From Gammaproteobacteria bacterium (GTDB lineage Bacteria; Pseudomonadota; Gammaproteobacteria; Eutrophobiales; Eutrophobiaceae): a DNA stretch of 64,000 nt. The DNA is taken from assembly GCA_965215365.1 (NCBI GenBank), contig CBDCDS010000003.1:2080001-2144000 (forward strand), in the 5' to 3' direction. The translations under genes and the position numbers were made by a program. Positions 10,534-42,180 of this stretch are shown here, in pieces (the stretch's first letter is position 1; every line of letters starts with the position of its first letter). The notes under the pieces are model-generated. The model was not told where the DNA came from. It did not search any database and saw only the letters and a list, made by a program, of their open reading frames with translations.

Positions 10534-10683
10534 GGCCACCTCTATTGATAGAGGTGGCCGTGCAGCATAAGGATATGCTGCCATTTTTAATCACGTAAGT
10601 GATTGAAAATGAAGGAAATGAAAAATCACACTTTTTCATTTCCGTCTCTAAAAATACCACGGAGGGTATTTTTAGAGGTTACC
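10534..10683 (-). mobile_element. MITE family B, cargo-free copy (150 bp) with 4-bp ATAA target duplication
   Basis: Ends GGCCACCTCTA...TAGAGGTTACC with ATAA on both sides; colinear (reverse complement) with 40217-40946 once the inserts there are removed. Confidence 0.85.
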
Positions 10684-36496: not shown

Positions 36497-39400
36497 TCAT
36501 GCAGAAGCGGCCAGCTCCACGGCTGCGTCAATATCCACTGACACCAGGCGTGAAACGCCAGCCTCGTGCATGGTAACACCCAGTAGCTGGCGCGTGATCT
36601 CCATGGTGATTTTATTGTGGGTAACGATGATGAATTGCACGTCTTTGGACATGACCTTTACCATTTCACTGAACCTGACCACGTTGCTATCGTCCAGTGG
36701 CGCATCCACCTCATCTAAGATACAGAATGGGGCCGGATTCAGTTTGAAGATAGAGAACACCAGCGCCACGGCCGTCAGGGCTTTCTCACCGCCGGACAAC
36801 AGATGGATATTGCTGTTCTTTTTACCCGGCGGTCTGGCCATGACCGTCACGCCGGTTTCCAGCAGGTTTTGCTCGGTCATTTCCAGGTACGCATGACCGC
36901 CGCCGAACAACAGTGGAAAGTTTTCCTGGAGGTTTGCATTCAGGCGTTCGAAAGTTTCCTTGAAACGGGCGCGGGTCTCTTTGTCAATCTTGAGCATGGC
37001 ATTCTCCAGCGTCTCCAGAGCAGTGGACAAATCAGCATACTGGCTGTCCAGATAGGTTTTACGTTCACTGTTCTGTTCATATTCACCAATGGCCGCCAGA
37101 TTAATGGCGCCCAGGCGTTGTATCCGGTTCTCCACTGCGCCCAAGCGCTCTCGCCATGGTTGTATCCGGGCCTGCTCATCCAGCCCTTCCAGCAAGGCCT
37201 GGGGAGTATGTGCCATTGCCTCCAGCCGCTCTGCCAACGTTTGCACCCTGACGGTTGTCTCCTGGTGCCGGATGCGCGCCTGCTCCAATACTGCGCGTAA
37301 TTCCTGCAATGCCAGTTCCTTGTCCGCGCGCGCCTGCTCTTCGTCTCTGAGCAGCTGTTCCTGGCCTTGAACGGTTTCCCGAGCCGTTGCCAAGGCGGTT
37401 TCCGAGCTCAACTTCTGCGCCAGTTTGAGTTCCAGTTCATCACCCAGTTGTTGCAGCGGTTGCTGCTGTGCAGCCTGCGCGCGCGCCAGTTCGCCGAGGC
37501 GCTGCTCCAGCGCGGCAAGCTGCTCCTCGCCGCGCCGGCACGACTGTGCAAATGATGCCTTTTGCGTTTTGGCCGAGGTCACTTGCAATTCGAGAGCGTG
37601 GCTGTCGGCACCGGCATCCTGCCAGTGTGAGCGGGCTTTGCTCAACGCCTGGGTATGCTCGGCGCGCGTTGAGGCCAGTTGTTGCTGTTGTGTGAGCAAC
37701 TCCTGTCGGCACTTTTGAGCGCGCGCCAGCAGCGGTTCAAGCTGAACTATTTCCGCCTGCGCAGCCTGTTCCTGGTCATGCAAGTCATGTAGTTCCTGTT
37801 CAATCCTGGTGGCTCTCTCGGAACTCTGTTCGTGCCGGGTTTTTAACTCTGTAAACTGTGCCTTGGTGGTTGCAACAACTTCTTGTTGATTATTTAATGA
37901 TATAAGTAACTTATTGTTTTTAATGTTTTCTTTCTCGACAAGGTTGTTCTTTTGTCTGATCTCGTCTTCGCGCTGGCCAATCCCGGTTTGCAATTCCTGC
38001 CGGATCCCTTTCAAGCGGGTCAGCTCCTGTTCGCGCGCCAGTGCGCCGGGTGCCTCCGCGGCGCCTTGCATTCTTACCCAGTAATTATTCAGCCACACGC
38101 CGTCTTTGGTGATGACCGACTCGGTGTCATCCAGCTCGCGACCGATTAACCGTGCCTGTTGCTCACTCTCCGCCAGGTAGATACGGTTCAGCAAGACCTC
38201 CACAGGCGTTGGCGTTGTGACCTTGTCGATCAGCCTGGGCCAGGGTTTGGGTGTGTAACTGATGGGCTCGCCCTCAGCCAGCACAAAGCCGGCGTTACCG
38301 GTTTGCAGTGATGCTGTGTCCAAGTCAAGACCCTGCAGGTCTGTAACCAGCAAATCCTGCAAGCGCGCGCCAAGCACCAGCTCCAGCGCGGCCTCCCAAC
38401 CCGGCTCCACTCGTATCTCGTCTATCAGCCGAGGTCTGTCCGTCAACCCCTGCGCGGCCAACCAACGTTCCAGACTTTCCGTATCGTCCAGTGTTTGTGC
38501 GCGCTGCAATGCCTGCAGGGAGGTGATGCGGTTCTCATTCTTCTGGTGTTCGGCGCGCAACGTCTGAACTTGTGTATTCAAGTCTGTCAGCGCAGCCCGG
38601 TAGTCCTGCAAGCTGGCGGCGCTTTCCTGCAATTCCTGTTTCCTGCGCGCCAGCAGGCGCTCACTTTCGCCGGCGGCTGCAGATAAAATTTCCAACTCCT
38701 GTTGCAGTCGCTCCGGGAACAGCGTTGCCGCTTCCTGCTGCAAGTCGGCGCGGCGTTGCTCCAGCACCAATGTCCCGGACTGCAACAAGCCCTTGCGCGT
38801 GGTGTTCACTTCAATGCGCTTGTCGGTCTCGGCCAGCGTGCGCTGTAATGTATCCCACTCCTGTTGCAGGGTTTGCCAAACCTGCTCTGCAGTGCGCAAG
38901 GCCTTGTGGGCATCGCTGCCGGCGCTACGGGCGCGCTCCAGGCGTGGCGCCAGCTGCTCTATCCTGTCCGTAAGCTCGGTCAACTGCCTAGTATCATCCG
39001 CCTGTTGCCGCAACAGCGCCTGCTCGGATTGCCCGACCTTGGCGGCTTCCTCAGCCAGTGCATCAATGCGCTCTTTGGTATGGGTAATGCGTTGCTCCAG
39101 CTGCGATATGTCGCTGCCGATCTGGTAAAACCCGGCCTGGGCTACGTTAAGCGCTTCATTCGCGGCGCTGTAGCTCTGTCGCTGTGTCTCAATGCCTGCT
39201 TCCACCTTGCGCAGCGCGGCGAGACCGGCTTCCACCCGGTTTTCGTGCCTGCGCACAGCGCCAAGCCGGTCTTCGGCAGCAGCCGACAACTCCTGCCATT
39301 CCAGCGCCAGCAGTTCCGCCTGCAGTTGCCGCTCTTCCTGCTTGAGCGCCTTGAAACGTTCCGCCGCGCGGGCCTGTCGTTGCAAGTGTTCCAGTTGCTT

Positions 39401-40006
39401 TTCCAGTTCTTCCAGCAGGTCCGTCAACCTGCTGATGTTATCGCGGGTATGCCGGATGCGACGTTCCGTTTCCCGGCGCCGCTCCCGGAACCTGGAGATC
39501 CCGGCCGCCTCCTCCAGGAACATGCGCAACTCCTCTGGCCTGGCTTCTATGAGCCGGGAGATCACGCCTTGCTCAATAATTGAATAACTGCGCGGACCGA
39601 TACCGGTGCCGAGGAAGATATCCTGGATGTCCTTGCGTCGACAACGCGCGCCGTTGAGGAAATAGGTGGATATCGCATCCCGGTTCAATTGTCGGCGGAT
39701 GGAGATTTCGGCATACCCGGCATAGGCTCCGCCGAGTTTACCCCCCGCATTGTCAAACACAAGTTCCACCGAGGCCTGACCGACCGGCTGTCTGGCGCCA
39801 GAGCCGTTGAAAATCACATCAGTCAAGGCTTCACCGCGTAAATGCCTGGCGGAACTCTCCCCCATTACCCAGGTCACTGCATCGATAATATTGGACTTGC
39901 CACAGCCATTCGGCCCGACGATTCCGACCAGATTGTCGGCAACCTGCAGGACCGTGGGCTCAACAAAGGATTTGAAGCCGGCGAGTTTAATTTTGCGTAA
40001 GCGCAT
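36497..40006 (-). CDS. smc: Chromosome segregation protein SMC
   Basis: GFKSF, GPNGCGKSN, coiled coils and hinge, LSGGE, ILDEVDAPLD. Confidence 0.98.
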   Translation of the reverse strand: MRLRKIKLAGFKSFVEPTVLQVADNLVGIVGPNGCGKSNIIDAVTWVMGESSARHLRGEALTDVIFNGSGARQPVGQASVELVFDNAGGKLGGAYAGYAEISIRRQLNRDAISTYFLNGARCRRKDIQDIFLGTGIGPRSYSIIEQGVISRLIEARPEELRMFLEEAAGISRFRERRRETERRIRHTRDNISRLTDLLEELEKQLEHLQRQARAAERFKALKQEERQLQAELLALEWQELSAAAEDRLGAVRRHENRVEAGLAALRKVEAGIETQRQSYSAANEALNVAQAGFYQIGSDISQLEQRITHTKERIDALAEEAAKVGQSEQALLRQQADDTRQLTELTDRIEQLAPRLERARSAGSDAHKALRTAEQVWQTLQQEWDTLQRTLAETDKRIEVNTTRKGLLQSGTLVLEQRRADLQQEAATLFPERLQQELEILSAAAGESERLLARRKQELQESAASLQDYRAALTDLNTQVQTLRAEHQKNENRITSLQALQRAQTLDDTESLERWLAAQGLTDRPRLIDEIRVEPGWEAALELVLGARLQDLLVTDLQGLDLDTASLQTGNAGFVLAEGEPISYTPKPWPRLIDKVTTPTPVEVLLNRIYLAESEQQARLIGRELDDTESVITKDGVWLNNYWVRMQGAAEAPGALAREQELTRLKGIRQELQTGIGQREDEIRQKNNLVEKENIKNNKLLISLNNQQEVVATTKAQFTELKTRHEQSSERATRIEQELHDLHDQEQAAQAEIVQLEPLLARAQKCRQELLTQQQQLASTRAEHTQALSKARSHWQDAGADSHALELQVTSAKTQKASFAQSCRRGEEQLAALEQRLGELARAQAAQQQPLQQLGDELELKLAQKLSSETALATARETVQGQEQLLRDEEQARADKELALQELRAVLEQARIRHQETTVRVQTLAERLEAMAHTPQALLEGLDEQARIQPWRERLGAVENRIQRLGAINLAAIGEYEQNSERKTYLDSQYADLSTALETLENAMLKIDKETRARFKETFERLNANLQENFPLLFGGGHAYLEMTEQNLLETGVTVMARPPGKKNSNIHLLSGGEKALTAVALVFSIFKLNPAPFCILDEVDAPLDDSNVVRFSEMVKVMSKDVQFIIVTHNKITMEITRQLLGVTMHEAGVSRLVSVDIDAAVELAASA

Positions 40007-40253
40007 GAACAGTTAACCCGCATATCTCACCGAGTGATGCGAAGCTCGCGCCGGATGGGTTCTGCCTGCGGGTGCATGCGACCGAAACCATAGCGGTAGC
40101 TATGGTTGAGCAAGCACGTGCCCGCAGGCAGAACCAAAACCAGCGAGGGCGCATCAAGCGCAGTGTGTTATGTGGAAAGAGTAGCAGTATTATCATAACT
40201 TATTGAGAGAAATTATGGTAACCTCTAAAAATACCCTCCGTGGTATTTTGTGA

Positions 40254-40325
40254 TGCGTCCCATCCTTGGGACGCCCCCTGCGGGCGTCCTGCGGACGTCC
40301 AAATCCGCTCCGGGCGGATTTGTGA
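40254..40325 (+). repeat. 72-nt four-hairpin module C1
   Basis: Absent from the 10534-10683 copy; GTGA direct repeat at the junctions. Confidence 0.75.
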
Positions 40326-40363
40326 GACGGAAATGAAAAAGTATGATTTTTCATTTCCCTCAT

Positions 40364-40867
40364 TGCGTCCATCCGTGGACGCAACCCTTCGGGCAGCTAT
40401 GGCTGTGCACAAATTCGTCTGGAACGAATTTGGACAGCGCAGCTGGCCCCATCGGGGCAAACTACACGGATGTAGTTTGCACAAATTCGTCTGGAACGAA
40501 TTTGGACAGCGCAGCTGGCCCCATCGGGGCAAACTACACGGATGTAGTTTGCACAAATTCGTCTGGAACGAATTTGGACAGCGCAGCTGGCCCCATCGGG
40601 GCAAACTACACGGATGTAGTTTGCACAAATTCGTCTGGAACGAATTTGGACAGCGCAGCTGGCCCCATCGGGGCAAACTACACGGATGTAGTTTGCACAA
40701 ATTCGTCTGGAACGAATTTGGACAGCGCAGCTGGCCCCATCGGGGCAAACTACACGGATGTAGTTTGCACAAATTCGTCTGGAACGAATTTGGACAGCGC
40801 AGCTGGCCCCATCGGGGCAAACTACACGGATGTAGTTTGCAAATCGTCTATCCTGACGATTTGTCAT
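40364..40867 (+). repeat. 72-nt four-hairpin module C2 (40364-40407 plus 40840-40867), split by the tandem array
   Basis: Absent from the 10534-10683 copy; TCAT direct repeat at the junctions; 44+28=72 nt. Confidence 0.75.
40408..40839 (-). repeat. Perfect tandem array, 6 x 72 bp (module C3, inverted relative to C1/C2)
   Basis: Unit CACAAATTCGTCTGGAACGAATTTGGACAGCGCAGCTGGCCCCATCGGGGCAAACTACACGGATGTAGTTTG starts at 40408, 40480, 40552, 40624, 40696 and 40768; no spacers. Confidence 0.97.
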
Positions 40868-41022
40868 TTTCAAGCACTTACGTGCTTGCTGTTACTGGCA
40901 GCATGTCCTTATGCTGCACGGGCACCTCTAATTTTTAGAGGTGCCCTTATGTTTCACAAGGCAACAAGCGACTTGGTGAGATATGCGGGTTAAGATACCG
41001 GTAAGCGTGTACTGATACAAGA

Positions 41023-42154
41023 TGTCCGGGTTCAGAAACAAGTAAGACTCTTTAGATAAAGAAATCGGGTAGTCTGTGTGTGAATTAATCTCAACTAATT
41101 GACACAGGAGGACTACCCGATGCAGATCAAAAGCCTGCGGGTGAAATCATATCGCAGTTGGCGCGTGGATGATACTACCGATGCTGACGCGCTCGGTCGT
41201 TTGCAGCAGTTGGAATTGGTTGCGACGTTACGCGAGGATGGGTGTGGTGAGGCGACGGCACTGGCAGCAGTAGGTTGGTCGAGGGCGACCTACTACCGTT
41301 GGTTGAAGCGGTATCGTGAACATGGGCTGAAGGGTCTGGGGTGTGGCTCTCGTGCGCCGCGGCGGCGGCGTGTGCCGCAATGGACGCGCCAGCACGAGCA
41401 GCAGGTCTTGCACCTTCGCCAACGTTATCCGTTATGGGGCAAGCGTAAGCTCTGGCGGGTGGGGGTGCGCGAGCAGGGCTGGACTTTGAGCGAGAGTACG
41501 GTCGGGCGCATCGTGGCGAAGCTGGTGCGGCTAGGTCGGGTCAAGCCGGTGGCGTTTTACTATGGCCGGGTGAAGCCTAAGCGCCGCCGGGCGTTTACCC
41601 ATCATGCCAAGCGCTGGCGCTACGGGATGAAGGCTAAGGCGCCAGGGGAGTTGATGCAGATAGACCACATGAGTGTCGGCTTCACGGACGGCGTCACGGT
41701 GAAGGAGTTCAAGGCCGTCTGTCCGGTGAGCAAATGGAGTGCGCTGCGAGCCTACAGTCGGGCCACCAGTGGCAATGCCCGGCGCTTCTTAAAGGCGCTG
41801 TGCCAAGAGGCGCCGTTTCCCATCCGTTCTATCCAGGTCGATGGCGGCTCGGAGTTCCGAGATGAGTTCGAGCAGGCTTGCCAGGACTTAGGAATCCCCC
41901 TGTACGTGCTGCCCCCGAAAAAACCCGAATACAACGGCTGTGTAGAACGCGCCAATGCCACCAGCCGCTATGAGTTCTATCCGTTCTACGAGGGTCCACT
42001 GACCGTGGCGGCCATCAACCGCAAACTGGCAGAGTATCAGCAATACTACAATACCTACCGCCCGCATGACGGTATTGGTTTATTAACCCCAATGGAGTAT
42101 TATCAACAACTCACACAGCCTGCCTCTGAGTCTCATATGTATTGAACCTGGACA
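41023..42154 (+). mobile_element. IS481-family insertion sequence (1132 bp), 5-bp CAAGA target duplication
   Basis: Left end TGTCCGGGTTCA..AGACTC, right end (reverse complement) TGTCCAGGTTCA..AGACTC; CAAGA on both sides; TGT...ACA ends. Confidence 0.9.
41120..42145 (+). CDS. IS481-family DDE transposase
   Basis: HTH SRATYYRW, P.WG.RKL, QIDH / QVDGGSEF / NGCVER DDE triad, YN..RPH; AGGAGG RBS. Confidence 0.92.
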   Translation: MQIKSLRVKSYRSWRVDDTTDADALGRLQQLELVATLREDGCGEATALAAVGWSRATYYRWLKRYREHGLKGLGCGSRAPRRRRVPQWTRQHEQQVLHLRQRYPLWGKRKLWRVGVREQGWTLSESTVGRIVAKLVRLGRVKPVAFYYGRVKPKRRRAFTHHAKRWRYGMKAKAPGELMQIDHMSVGFTDGVTVKEFKAVCPVSKWSALRAYSRATSGNARRFLKALCQEAPFPIRSIQVDGGSEFRDEFEQACQDLGIPLYVLPPKKPEYNGCVERANATSRYEFYPFYEGPLTVAAINRKLAEYQQYYNTYRPHDGIGLLTPMEYYQQLTQPASESHMY

Positions 42155-42180
42155 CAAGATTGACACAAAATAAAAATTAA

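Follow-up and report, generated by a model that had tools for sequence, protein, structure and literature searches.

What are the three short, hairpin-rich inserts at positions 40254 to 40867 of this DNA, and how did they come to be packed together? In the window, by which we mean the whole stretch of 64,000 nt analyzed here (contig CBDCDS010000003.1 of a member of Eutrophobiaceae), an initial annotation made from the sequence by itself had delimited three inserts, C1, C2, and C3, and had taken them for variants of one mobile element with four hairpins. We consider it somewhat probable, at roughly 55%, that C1, C2, and C3 represent three subfamilies (types A, B, and C) of one old, widespread, and mobile 72-nt module with four hairpins (hp1 to hp4). 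The kind is already known from structured repeats such as the repetitive extragenic palindromes (REPs) and from the tRNA-linked RtT units, and the module is classed here as a REP-like mobile element. As a family, it was not found described in the full-text literature or in Rfam 15, older subscription-journal papers lying outside the search. Apparently undescribed are its reach across orders, its place after Escherichia coli rrn operons, its target in the T loop of tRNA sequences, and its ANGGAN loops.

Nested build of the hairpin cluster

The inserts sit in a larger hairpin composite of about 150 nt with five hairpins (H1 to H5), for which BLAST returned 139 rows in this genome, including about 30 full-length copies. 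The copy that served the initial annotation as its empty reference lies in the same window (10534-10683, minus strand; BLAST and junction census). In the cluster, H1 (40223-40253, plus strand), delimited by reading the sequence and by a census of 30 H1-H2 junctions, has a stem resembling that of hp4 and a CTCCGT loop, and its 3' arm is changed to ...TTTTGTGA at the border of C1. C1 follows at 40254-40325 (plus strand; type A, 72 nt, hp1 to hp4); it was matched by the covariance model of the module at 85.6 bits (E 6e-20), and BLAST found six exact 72/72 copies in the genome, the window copy included, which is far beyond chance. Next come H2 and the letters CTCAT (40326-40363, plus strand; sequence and junction census) and the 5' part of C2 (40364-40407, plus strand; type B, hp1 to hp3, 44 nt), an intact type B unit being present at the same junction elsewhere (77 vs. 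5 nt). Between hp3 and hp4 of C2 lie six identical type C modules, together called C3 (40408-40839, minus strand; 76.6 bits per unit), which Tandem Repeats Finder reported as an array at 40406-40841 with a period of 72, 6.1 copies, and 100% identity. The 3' part of C2 (40840-40867, plus strand), consisting of hp4 plus TCAT, contributes 28 nt, and sequence comparison restores a unit of 44 + 28 = 72 nt. H3 to H5 (40868-40955, plus strand; sequence and BLAST of the composite) complete the host.

Junction lengths were counted among paralogous copies of the composite within this one genome. The H1-H2 junction measured 7 nt at 18 of 30 sites, 8 nt at one, 70 nt at two, 79 nt at eight, and 80 nt at one. 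The H2-H3 junction measured 5 nt at 20 of 23 sites and 77, 149, and 509 nt at one site each, that is, +72, +144, and +504 nt, corresponding to B alone, B with one C unit, and B with six C units. Filled and empty sites thus occur as paralogous pairs (7 vs. 79 nt and 5 vs. 77 nt), and the earlier statement that each insert adds exactly 72 nt holds in both censuses. The composite with one C unit lies near contig C3:1193 kb and that with an intact B near contig C3:829 kb, and a second C array, of 11 units, occupies the same composite at contig C3:2323421-2324213.

The insertions are nested, C3 inside C2 and C2 inside the larger hairpin composite. Because the junction lengths rise in exact 72-nt steps, a nested series of events is indicated, and the cluster is best explained as a mosaic of the type of bacterial interspersed mosaic elements (BIMEs) built by successive events. 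The composite H1-H5 would have come first; the H1-H2 junction would then have received A and the H2-H3 junction B, C would have entered B, and amplification of C to six copies would have come last. The 100% identity of the arrays points to recent amplification; expansion to perfect tandem arrays may have proceeded by slippage, unequal exchange, or rolling-circle copying. Another insert, of 63 nt and unrelated in sequence to the module, was seen at the H1-H2 junction in 2 of 30 composites (contig C3:688192; minus strand, offset 294438).

Structure and covariation

Two alignments were examined, one of 20 copies from this genome (75 columns) and one of 78 copies from other taxa. RNAalifold predicted hp1 and hp4 from the 20 genome copies, with compensatory changes in 11 of 19 pairs, and both-side changes were seen in 15 of 19 pairs in the 78-copy alignment. 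Paired cells amounted to 89%, compared with 73% in shuffles (the observed value was reached in 0 of 500), and the covariation score was 0.407 vs. 0.035-0.071 with partners slid by 1-3 columns. These results agree with the initial observation that the stems differ in sequence and keep their pairing, and the structure is under constraint. hp3 is a near-perfect hairpin of 4-6 bp with two non-Watson-Crick pairs in 78 parsed copies (of 98 rows given, 78 and 20 from the two alignments), and hp4 is a palindrome with arms of 8-9 bp and a center of 6-7 nt.

Against the varying stems stand fixed motifs, namely an NTCCNT loop closed by CC/GG, CCC-TNC-GGG in hp2, the stem base CAAAT...ATTTG, and a final loop containing TCC. 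Little or no variation is seen in the NTCCNT loop, the stem base, or the last-loop TCC among the 20 genome copies and the 78 from other taxa; the ATCC(G/T)T loop that had been named as constant therefore survives in the wider form NTCCNT. In the register of its T^T insertion site (the caret marks the cut), the unit reads TG(A/T)-T-hp1-hp2-hp3-hp4 and ends in ATTTG. The reported lack of terminal inverted repeats was confirmed, and the precise junctions together with the strong covariation bear out the description as a discrete element defined by its structure.

Family and taxonomic reach

Iterated nhmmer searches gave 68 matches and 44 distinct sequences in this genome, divided into types A, B, and C. 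With a covariance model of the 72-nt module (R1, hp3 being outside the model), 74 matches were found in this genome of 2.7 Mb. In a sample of relatives, R1 matched 40 of 61 genomes, comprising 21 of 22 of the same genus and 30 of 36 of the same family as well as nine other families of the class. When a species-representative collection covering 185,579 species was scanned with a degenerate pattern for types A and B, at least 113 loci were found. These belong to Microbulbifer, Rhodanobacter, Woeseiaceae, Sulfuricaulis, Endozoicomonas, Shewanella, Pseudoalteromonas, Alteromonas, Colwellia, Legionellaceae, and Granulosicoccus, and also to metagenome-assembled genomes (MAGs) labelled Desulfosoma, Desulfobacteraceae, Mariprofundaceae, Zetaproteobacteria, and Bacteriovoracaceae and to one Polaribacter MAG. 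R1 was applied to 64 of these loci, with additional loci of MAGs already in the set omitted; each of the 64 was matched over the full length (67-75 nt), and the matches numbered 78 in total. The covariance-model search that had been proposed for further copies has thus yielded them in abundance.

The number of R1 matches per genome was 1 in Endozoicomonas, 2 in Pseudoalteromonas, 4 in Shewanella basaltis, 5 in Colwellia, 6 in Alteromonas, 7 in Rhodanobacter, 10 in Gilvimarinus, 18 in Halioxenophilus, and 53 in Microbulbifer magnicolonia. Carriers, which include many Gammaproteobacteria and some other Proteobacteria, have between 1 and about 80 copies per genome. One 72-nt structured module is thus common to very distant Proteobacteria, including E. 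coli K-12. Its covariance model would improve the annotation of intergenic repeats and help to explain contig breaks in MAGs.

Insertion sites

The module inserts precisely, as a discrete 72-nt unit. In coding sequence, it lies inside a Y1/HUH-like gene between GRF and WEGRF at 8 of the at least 113 pattern loci and at 5 loci fetched from the same genomes, which belong to Shewanella, Pseudoalteromonas, Colwellia, Paraglaciecola, a Cellvibrionaceae MAG, and Endozoicomonas. In uninterrupted homologues (322-327 aa), the sequence is GRFWEGRF, and the interruption adds 72 nt. By its length, its taxa, and the lack of REP flanks, the interrupted gene is taken as TnpAY1 subclass 2.3 of Quentin et al., as set out in passages of PMC6006769. 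The initial suggestion that a length of 24 codons permits in-frame insertion into genes is right as to the 72 nt found in this TnpAY1 gene; the insert, however, brings an in-frame TAA, and since the five copies examined also have other stops, frameshifts, or truncation, they are regarded as pseudogenes. In this respect, the module differs from the Rickettsia palindromic elements as they are described, which are short structured repeats able to sit inside open reading frames (ORFs); the ORF case of the module comes with an in-frame stop and decayed host genes.

In other taxa, the left flank (on the strand read in the initial annotation) mostly ends in ...GGATTGA, and the right flank starts with TCGAACC.... 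At 8 of 60 loci, the two flanks make up the halves of a 5-bp stem, compared with 1.64 +/- 1.23 loci in shuffled pairings (maximum 6 in 500). Seven of the eight split stems are T arms, in which the two loop parts sum to the normal 7 nt with no duplication. Five T arms are cut at AT^TCGAA (antisense strand) and two at (T/C)^TCGA (sense strand), both orientations occurring in T loops because TTCGAA is palindromic. In a Woeseiaceae MAG contig of 427 nt (L039), a whole tRNA-Met is split in its T loop by the module, beside an intact tRNA-Met; among the loci tested, this is the only one where in silico removal of the 72 nt restores a tRNA. Other cuts read T^TCC in a 5S copy, T^TCA at H2-H3, T^TGC for C3 in C2, and T^TAG at H1-H2, and the ORF site reads C^TGG, outside the T^T(C/G) context of the T-loop, 5S, H1-H2, H2-H3, and C2 sites.

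The preferred target is a T^T(C/G) site, a notable example being TTCGA in the T loop of tRNA 3' fragments. The module had been said to target hairpin-rich DNA, including itself; C3 inside C2 is an instance of the latter, but T^T(C/G) is preferred over hairpin-rich DNA as such. Likewise, the 4-nt direct repeats noted earlier at the junctions (GTGA, TCAT, and TGCA) are present but reflect no general target duplication, as empty sites have TAGA vs. GTGA and the T-loop insertions are clean. In these repeats, the flank resembles the 3' end of the unit itself, with no regular duplication, and the TCAT junction carries a 4-nt ambiguity. With neither terminal inverted repeats nor a fixed-length target duplication, the module also differs from miniature inverted-repeat transposable elements of the DDE type.

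The T loop is the crossover region of many integrases that target tRNA genes. Insertions within it, tRNA 3' ends duplicated beside the module, the palindromic hp4, and tandem arrays resembling cassettes would all suit a miniature cassette moved by a tyrosine recombinase (integrase or XerCD) on a folded or palindromic core, similar to attC or to the T loop of a tRNA. We nevertheless regard this as quite improbable. Integron attC sites have the R''/R' core RYYYAAC...GTTRRRY and an integron integrase; this core is not in the module alignments, and the T-loop insertions have no common core beyond T^T. Three tyrosine recombinases (Phage_integrase matches) were found in this genome, among which IntI was not specifically tested for, and two of the three are taken as XerC and XerD from their lengths alone. 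Moreover, the covariation of the arms favors pairing over reading of duplex DNA by a protein.

Association with stable-RNA genes

E. coli K-12 gave three R1 matches, each of 52.2 bits (E 9e-10) and with all four hairpins, and its hp4 is nearly identical to that of C1. The copies lie exactly 80 nt past the last 5S gene (rrfA, rrfB, and rrfF) of rrnA, rrnB, and rrnD, with the GGA-loop orientation of the module (see below) on the sense strand. The order in rrnB is 5S, a first hairpin, the module, a second copy of the 5S 3' end, and a terminator-like hairpin, and the module splits the partial 5S copy, whose halves lie on either side. We take this stretch to be the spacer between terminators T1 and T2, and presumably it has been copied into many cloning vectors. 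To our knowledge, the stretch after the E. coli 5S genes has been described only as inverted repeats within a terminator cluster. There is no RefSeq annotation of the module at the three operons, no Rfam family was found in a scan of the region distal to rrnB, and of four papers carrying the E. coli module sequence in full text, none is about repeats by its title.

In the present genome, where 46 tRNA and tmRNA genes were found, two to five units, 173-185 nt in length, follow each of the three tRNA-Ser genes at a distance of 81-82 nt. Their components are a terminator hairpin, a spacer, GGGTTCGA, the GGA-oriented module, and the final 19-20 nt of the tRNA. In other taxa, intact genes for tRNA-Ser, Arg, Gln, Pro/Arg, and Leu lie 39-86 nt upstream on the same strand at six or more loci, and at four loci a tRNA gene on the other side is turned toward the module. 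At one locus in our genome (L155, contig C3:10343-13498), the order is csrA, tRNA-Ser, and two 185-nt units with the module; the units have their GGA loops on the csrA strand, which may be a coincidence given 74 copies in 2.7 Mb.

A comparable layout is known from E. coli, where the tyrT/tyrV repeat (178 nt x 3.1) is the Rfam RtT RNA (RF00391; 133-137 bits). Passages on rtT RNA give it a part in tyrT processing and possibly in the stringent response. In each 178-nt RtT unit (L188, 705-1263), the tRNA-Tyr 3' end is present as a copy, and a hairpin insert splits its T loop as GGATT ... CGAACC; the insert includes CCCTTCGGG and a hairpin similar to hp3, and the build is as in the module-bearing units. 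Both kinds of unit are thus directly repeated after a tRNA gene with about 170-185 nt (173-185 nt for the module units, 178 nt in E. coli) and end in a tRNA 3'-end copy whose T loop is split by hairpins including CCC-GAA-GGG. The RtT units, by contrast, have neither the CAAAT/ATTTG hairpin nor the ANGGAN loop and are not known as a dispersed inserting element. The RtT model aligned over its whole length with a tRNA-Ser unit that carries the module (L104), scoring 40.5 bits against an Rfam gathering score of 45. R1 gave at most 5 bits on the E. coli RtT units, which is no detection, and RF00391 had no match in the window (E up to 10) or in the tRNA-Ser units after csrA (E up to 1). Given the sub-threshold score and the non-detection by R1, RtT is held apart from the module family and treated as a separate family that is probably a diverged relative, judging from its architecture. 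The type C units after tRNA-Ser in this genome have the tRNA-linked layout of RtT, and C1-C3 of the window stand in another context.

The best-supported account is that the module is at home beside stable-RNA genes and has multiplied into mosaics and arrays in some lineages, including this one. It forms the core of tRNA-linked units of the poorly understood RtT type, and it ties together three subjects that have so far been treated apart, namely the hairpins that follow the 5S genes of E. coli, RtT RNA, and the mosaics of hairpins in repeat-rich genomes.

The folding strand, GGA loops, and CsrA

The strand opposite to that read in the initial annotation, hereafter the opposite strand, carries the GGA loops; for the C3 array, this is the plus strand of the window. 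Several features suggest that it is the strand that folds. Roughly half of the copies from other taxa have a conserved 2 x 2 TC/TC mismatch in hp1 (35 and 37 of 78 rows at two columns); the pair closing it covaries, and on the opposite strand the mismatch becomes a tandem G.A. hp2 is always CCC-TNC-GGG and the hp3 loop is TNC in 37 of 78 copies, giving C-GNA-G triloops on the opposite strand. Tandem sheared G.A pairs and C-GNA-G triloops are unusually stable motifs, especially in DNA. The count of G.T wobbles on the initially read strand, 50 vs. 11 A.C, points the other way, but 31 of the 50 lie at one loop-adjacent column. The orientation of copies beside protein genes, where the initially read strand is more often sense (counts below), also points the other way.

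On the opposite strand, the hp1 loop is A-N-G-G-A-N closed by C-G, in which the A and the GGA are invariant and both N vary among the 20 genome copies and those from other taxa, and type B hp4 loops read CAGGA(U/C). According to passages of PMC7652899, the repeats of CsrB have the form CAGGA(U/A/C)G and RsmE binds an ANGGAN hexaloop; a consensus obtained by SELEX (in vitro selection of ligands) is also given there. With two GGA-loop hairpins per unit on the opposite strand and csrA in this genome, the module has the sequence features of a Csr/Rsm sponge. The main rival to our reading is that the module is chiefly a functional RNA whose opposite-strand GGA hairpins bind CsrA/RsmA, the copies after rRNA and tRNA operons and the tandem arrays titrating CsrA and dispersed copies being secondary. 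Mobility and an RNA function of the opposite strand are compatible; as the leading explanation, the RNA function seems to us possible but rather unlikely.

In its favor, the hp1 loop is of the RsmE type and the type B hp4 loop resembles CsrB, and for the E. coli rrn copies and the tRNA-Ser copies of this genome, the GGA strand is also the one on which the stable-RNA gene upstream is sense. The RtT unit of E. coli, which is related and was identified by its Rfam match, is a known processed RNA according to a passage on it. Sub-threshold matches to sX7 (RF02226; 18-21 bits, threshold 55) in Microbulbifer magnicolonia (G065) all coincide with module copies, at five places and on the GGA strand; sX7 is a Xanthomonas RNA of 85-95 nt reported as a processing product, and we treat these matches as a lead only. 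Furthermore, at 35 loci where copies lie beside protein genes, the initially read strand was sense in 17 co-directional cases and antisense in 6, with 5 convergent and 7 divergent cases. Such an excess (17 vs. 6) fits counter-selection of GGA hairpins in mRNAs; the count uses our own crude codon-usage gene calls in this genome only, and the loci are non-independent. Orientation estimated from 300-nt flanks in GC-rich taxa was too noisy and was dropped, and the replication origin could not be placed because GC skew and gene-strand bias varied too irregularly along contig C3.

Other evidence argues against the sponge. Transcription is putative, none of 24 RNA runs containing the stretch. Consensus scans found promoter-like and terminator-like sites on the GGA strand of the array and around it at chance level; H5 (40920-40946, then TTATGTTT) is terminator-like on the plus strand, but as a single such site against a shuffle expectation of 1.3, it is not above chance. 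No Csr/Rsm family of Rfam matched in the window or rrnB scans. C1, C2, H1, and H4 carry TCC where C3 has GGA, which leaves no single transcript with all the sites, and the copies past stable-RNA genes are located beyond a terminator hairpin. The stems have 7-9 bp, compared with four or fewer pairs in most of the SELEX hairpins shown in passages of PMC7652899. As noted above, the C-GNA-G triloops and the tandem G.A also suggest folding as DNA. The module resembles CsrB and RsmZ in its repeated GGA-loop hairpins and differs from them in having no Rfam match, occurring in both orientations, being dispersed, inserting into other sequences, and having promoter-like sites at chance level only.

A bolder combination deserves mention as a tentative idea, which we hold to be doubtful. 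The module might be a new kind of mobile element, defined by its four hairpins and with neither inverted repeats nor target duplication, that homes to T^T of T loops and stable-RNA 3' ends by means of an enzyme outside the Y1/HUH, reverse transcriptase, and DDE groups, and its transcripts might titrate CsrA. Two ideas are joined in it, namely an insertion mechanism aimed at T^T, notably in T-loop DNA, and CsrA-type hairpins placed just past the most strongly transcribed genes of the cell. If it were true, read-through of rRNA and tRNA operons, including E. coli rrnB, would both titrate CsrA and link the making of stable RNA to the Csr network.

Mobility and the search for a mobilizing enzyme

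Returning to a mobile 72-nt module as the preferred reading, it would have spread as folded single-stranded DNA, the opposite strand carrying motifs that favor folding, and an enzyme that nicks and joins in trans would have moved it in the manner of REPs or of elements derived from IS200/IS605. The initial annotation had assigned the module to an enzyme outside the window. As far as the window is concerned this stands, since no candidate is found there; on the other hand, none was identified in the genome.

Several points weigh against the preferred reading, and we gather them here. No mobilizing-enzyme candidate is linked to the module anywhere. The genome has one REP-associated tyrosine transposase (RAYT), and this is flanked by its own, different array of 48-nt repeats. 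RVT_1 and the TnpB zinc ribbon were not found in this genome (97.6% complete), and the three tyrosine recombinases named above are of the XerC/XerD type in two cases, on the assignment given there. Y1/HUH transposases do not co-occur with module copy number either: the related genome G006 has 81 module matches and G004 has 24, and neither has a Y1_Tnp match or a gene similar to subclass 2.3. At the six loci with intact subclass-2.3-like or Y1-like genes (L156-L161), R1 found no module copies beside these genes. The boundaries of the unit vary by 1-4 nt between cases, and the single-stranded DNA intermediate is one that we only infer. Finally, the wide conservation and the fixed place after stable-RNA genes fit a selected function equally well.

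With regard to individual genes, both the subclass-2.3-like gene and Y1_Tnp occur in 14 of the 22 genomes of the genus. PF01797 (Y1_Tnp) had no match in G006, G004, or G009, the last with 14 module matches, and G010 has one module match and four subclass-2.3-like genes; neither gene tracks the module counts. The TnpAY1 subclass-2.3-like gene was accordingly rejected as the mobilizer, not being found in this genome (G000), showing no tie to copy number, and having no flanking module copies. At the RAYT locus (L154, contig C3:1055390-1058620), about eight tandem REP-like units of 48 nt follow the gene and two copies lie upstream. The RAYT and its repeats apparently lie inside a larger ORF, and a 517-aa ORF runs through all of them.

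The comparison of filled sites also counts against mobility in part. Nine A-filled H1-H2 junctions have flank changes in common, and the A-filled sites may represent one insertion that was copied along with the composite. The sole orthologous comparison, with G006, shows a replaced intergenic region and no clean empty site: the genes around contig C3:2257254 are adjacent only in G006, and the spacer there is replaced. Contigs of four sequencing runs break at repeats, and the joints seen match the paralogous empty H1-H2 form only. It might accordingly be argued that the module is immobile and owes its distribution to local duplication, gene conversion, and selection for terminator or stabilizer hairpins; recombination alone can grow arrays and composites, and a single A-filled lineage would agree with it. 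This seems to us highly improbable in view of the clean 72-nt interruptions of unrelated targets (different tRNA T loops, a 5S copy, and a transposase ORF) in distant taxa and of a copy number that ranges from 1 to about 80 among related genomes. Separately, composites were gained or lost between the two closest genomes, with an H1-H2 insertion in G006 and none at that spot in G000. In the same orthologous spacer, G000 carries B and H3-H5, and G006 has unrelated sequence.

Relation to REPs and IS200/IS605-derived elements

Passages of PMC6006769 describe the REP as a single imperfect palindrome with 5' GT[AG]G at its foot and mention that REPs can sit inside tnpA genes. REPs in BIMEs, and REP doublets forming hairpins (REPINs), are high-copy, intergenic, hairpin-forming repeats thought to be mobile as single strands, according to passages of PMC6006769, PMC2817692, and PMC3116915. 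An ordinary REP/BIME moved by the RAYT of this genome, or a palindrome-associated transposable element (PATE) moved by an IS200/IS605 TnpA, would be another explanation. The module is indeed intergenic and of high copy number, forms mosaics and tandem arrays, and occurs in a genome with one RAYT, and its insertion in the TnpAY1 genes of Alteromonadales is a parallel to REPs within tnpA. It also resembles PATEs (see passages of PMC6006769 and PMC3201880), since both lack inverted repeats and a target duplication, have hairpins close to either end, and insert in an oriented way next to a short target.

The differences are such that we judge this explanation improbable. Four hairpins make up the fixed 72-nt frame of the module, a GT[AG]G foot is missing from its alignments, and sequence conservation extends across orders, whereas REPs are species-specific. 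No RAYT flanks it, the one present being accompanied by the 48-nt repeat; no module copy lies beside any Y1 gene examined, and the high-copy carriers G006 and G004 have no Y1_Tnp. Compared with PATEs, the module occurs with no cognate TnpA found, its target would be only a T^T context (PATEs insert 3' of one fixed tetra- or pentanucleotide), and its hairpins abut the ends, whereas those of PATEs lie 10-19 nt inside.

Other features of the region

The cluster belongs to a region (40007-41098) between an SMC gene (36497-40006, minus strand) and an IS481-family transposase gene (41099-42145), with DksA next. ARAGORN found no tRNA or tmRNA in the window, and for this reason the module units are not tRNA genes. 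An Rfam scan of 39500-41500 (E up to 10) gave chance-level matches only; the proposed comparison with Rfam thus showed no direct match of the window units to a described family.

Upstream of H1 lies an unrelated high-copy repeat of about 206 nt (40012-40218, no strand assigned), for which BLAST coverage was 61-116 copies per position. It begins with TTAACCCGCATATCTCACC, is at times arranged in tandem with a spacing of about 242 nt, and lies on a contig of very high depth. An inverted fragment of its terminus (40960-40994, minus strand; inverted repeat and BLAST) follows the composite; the first 23 nt of the 206-nt repeat and positions 40971-40993 form a 23-nt inverted pair on either side of the hairpin cluster. 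Elsewhere, the same terminus cuts short a module copy beside csrA. Downstream, an insertion sequence of the IS481 family, unrelated to the module, occupies 41023-42155 (plus strand; Pfam rve, HTH_32, and LZ_Tnp_IS481). This element of about 1133 nt has at least 25 copies at 97-99.7% identity, and the genome is rich in insertion sequences.

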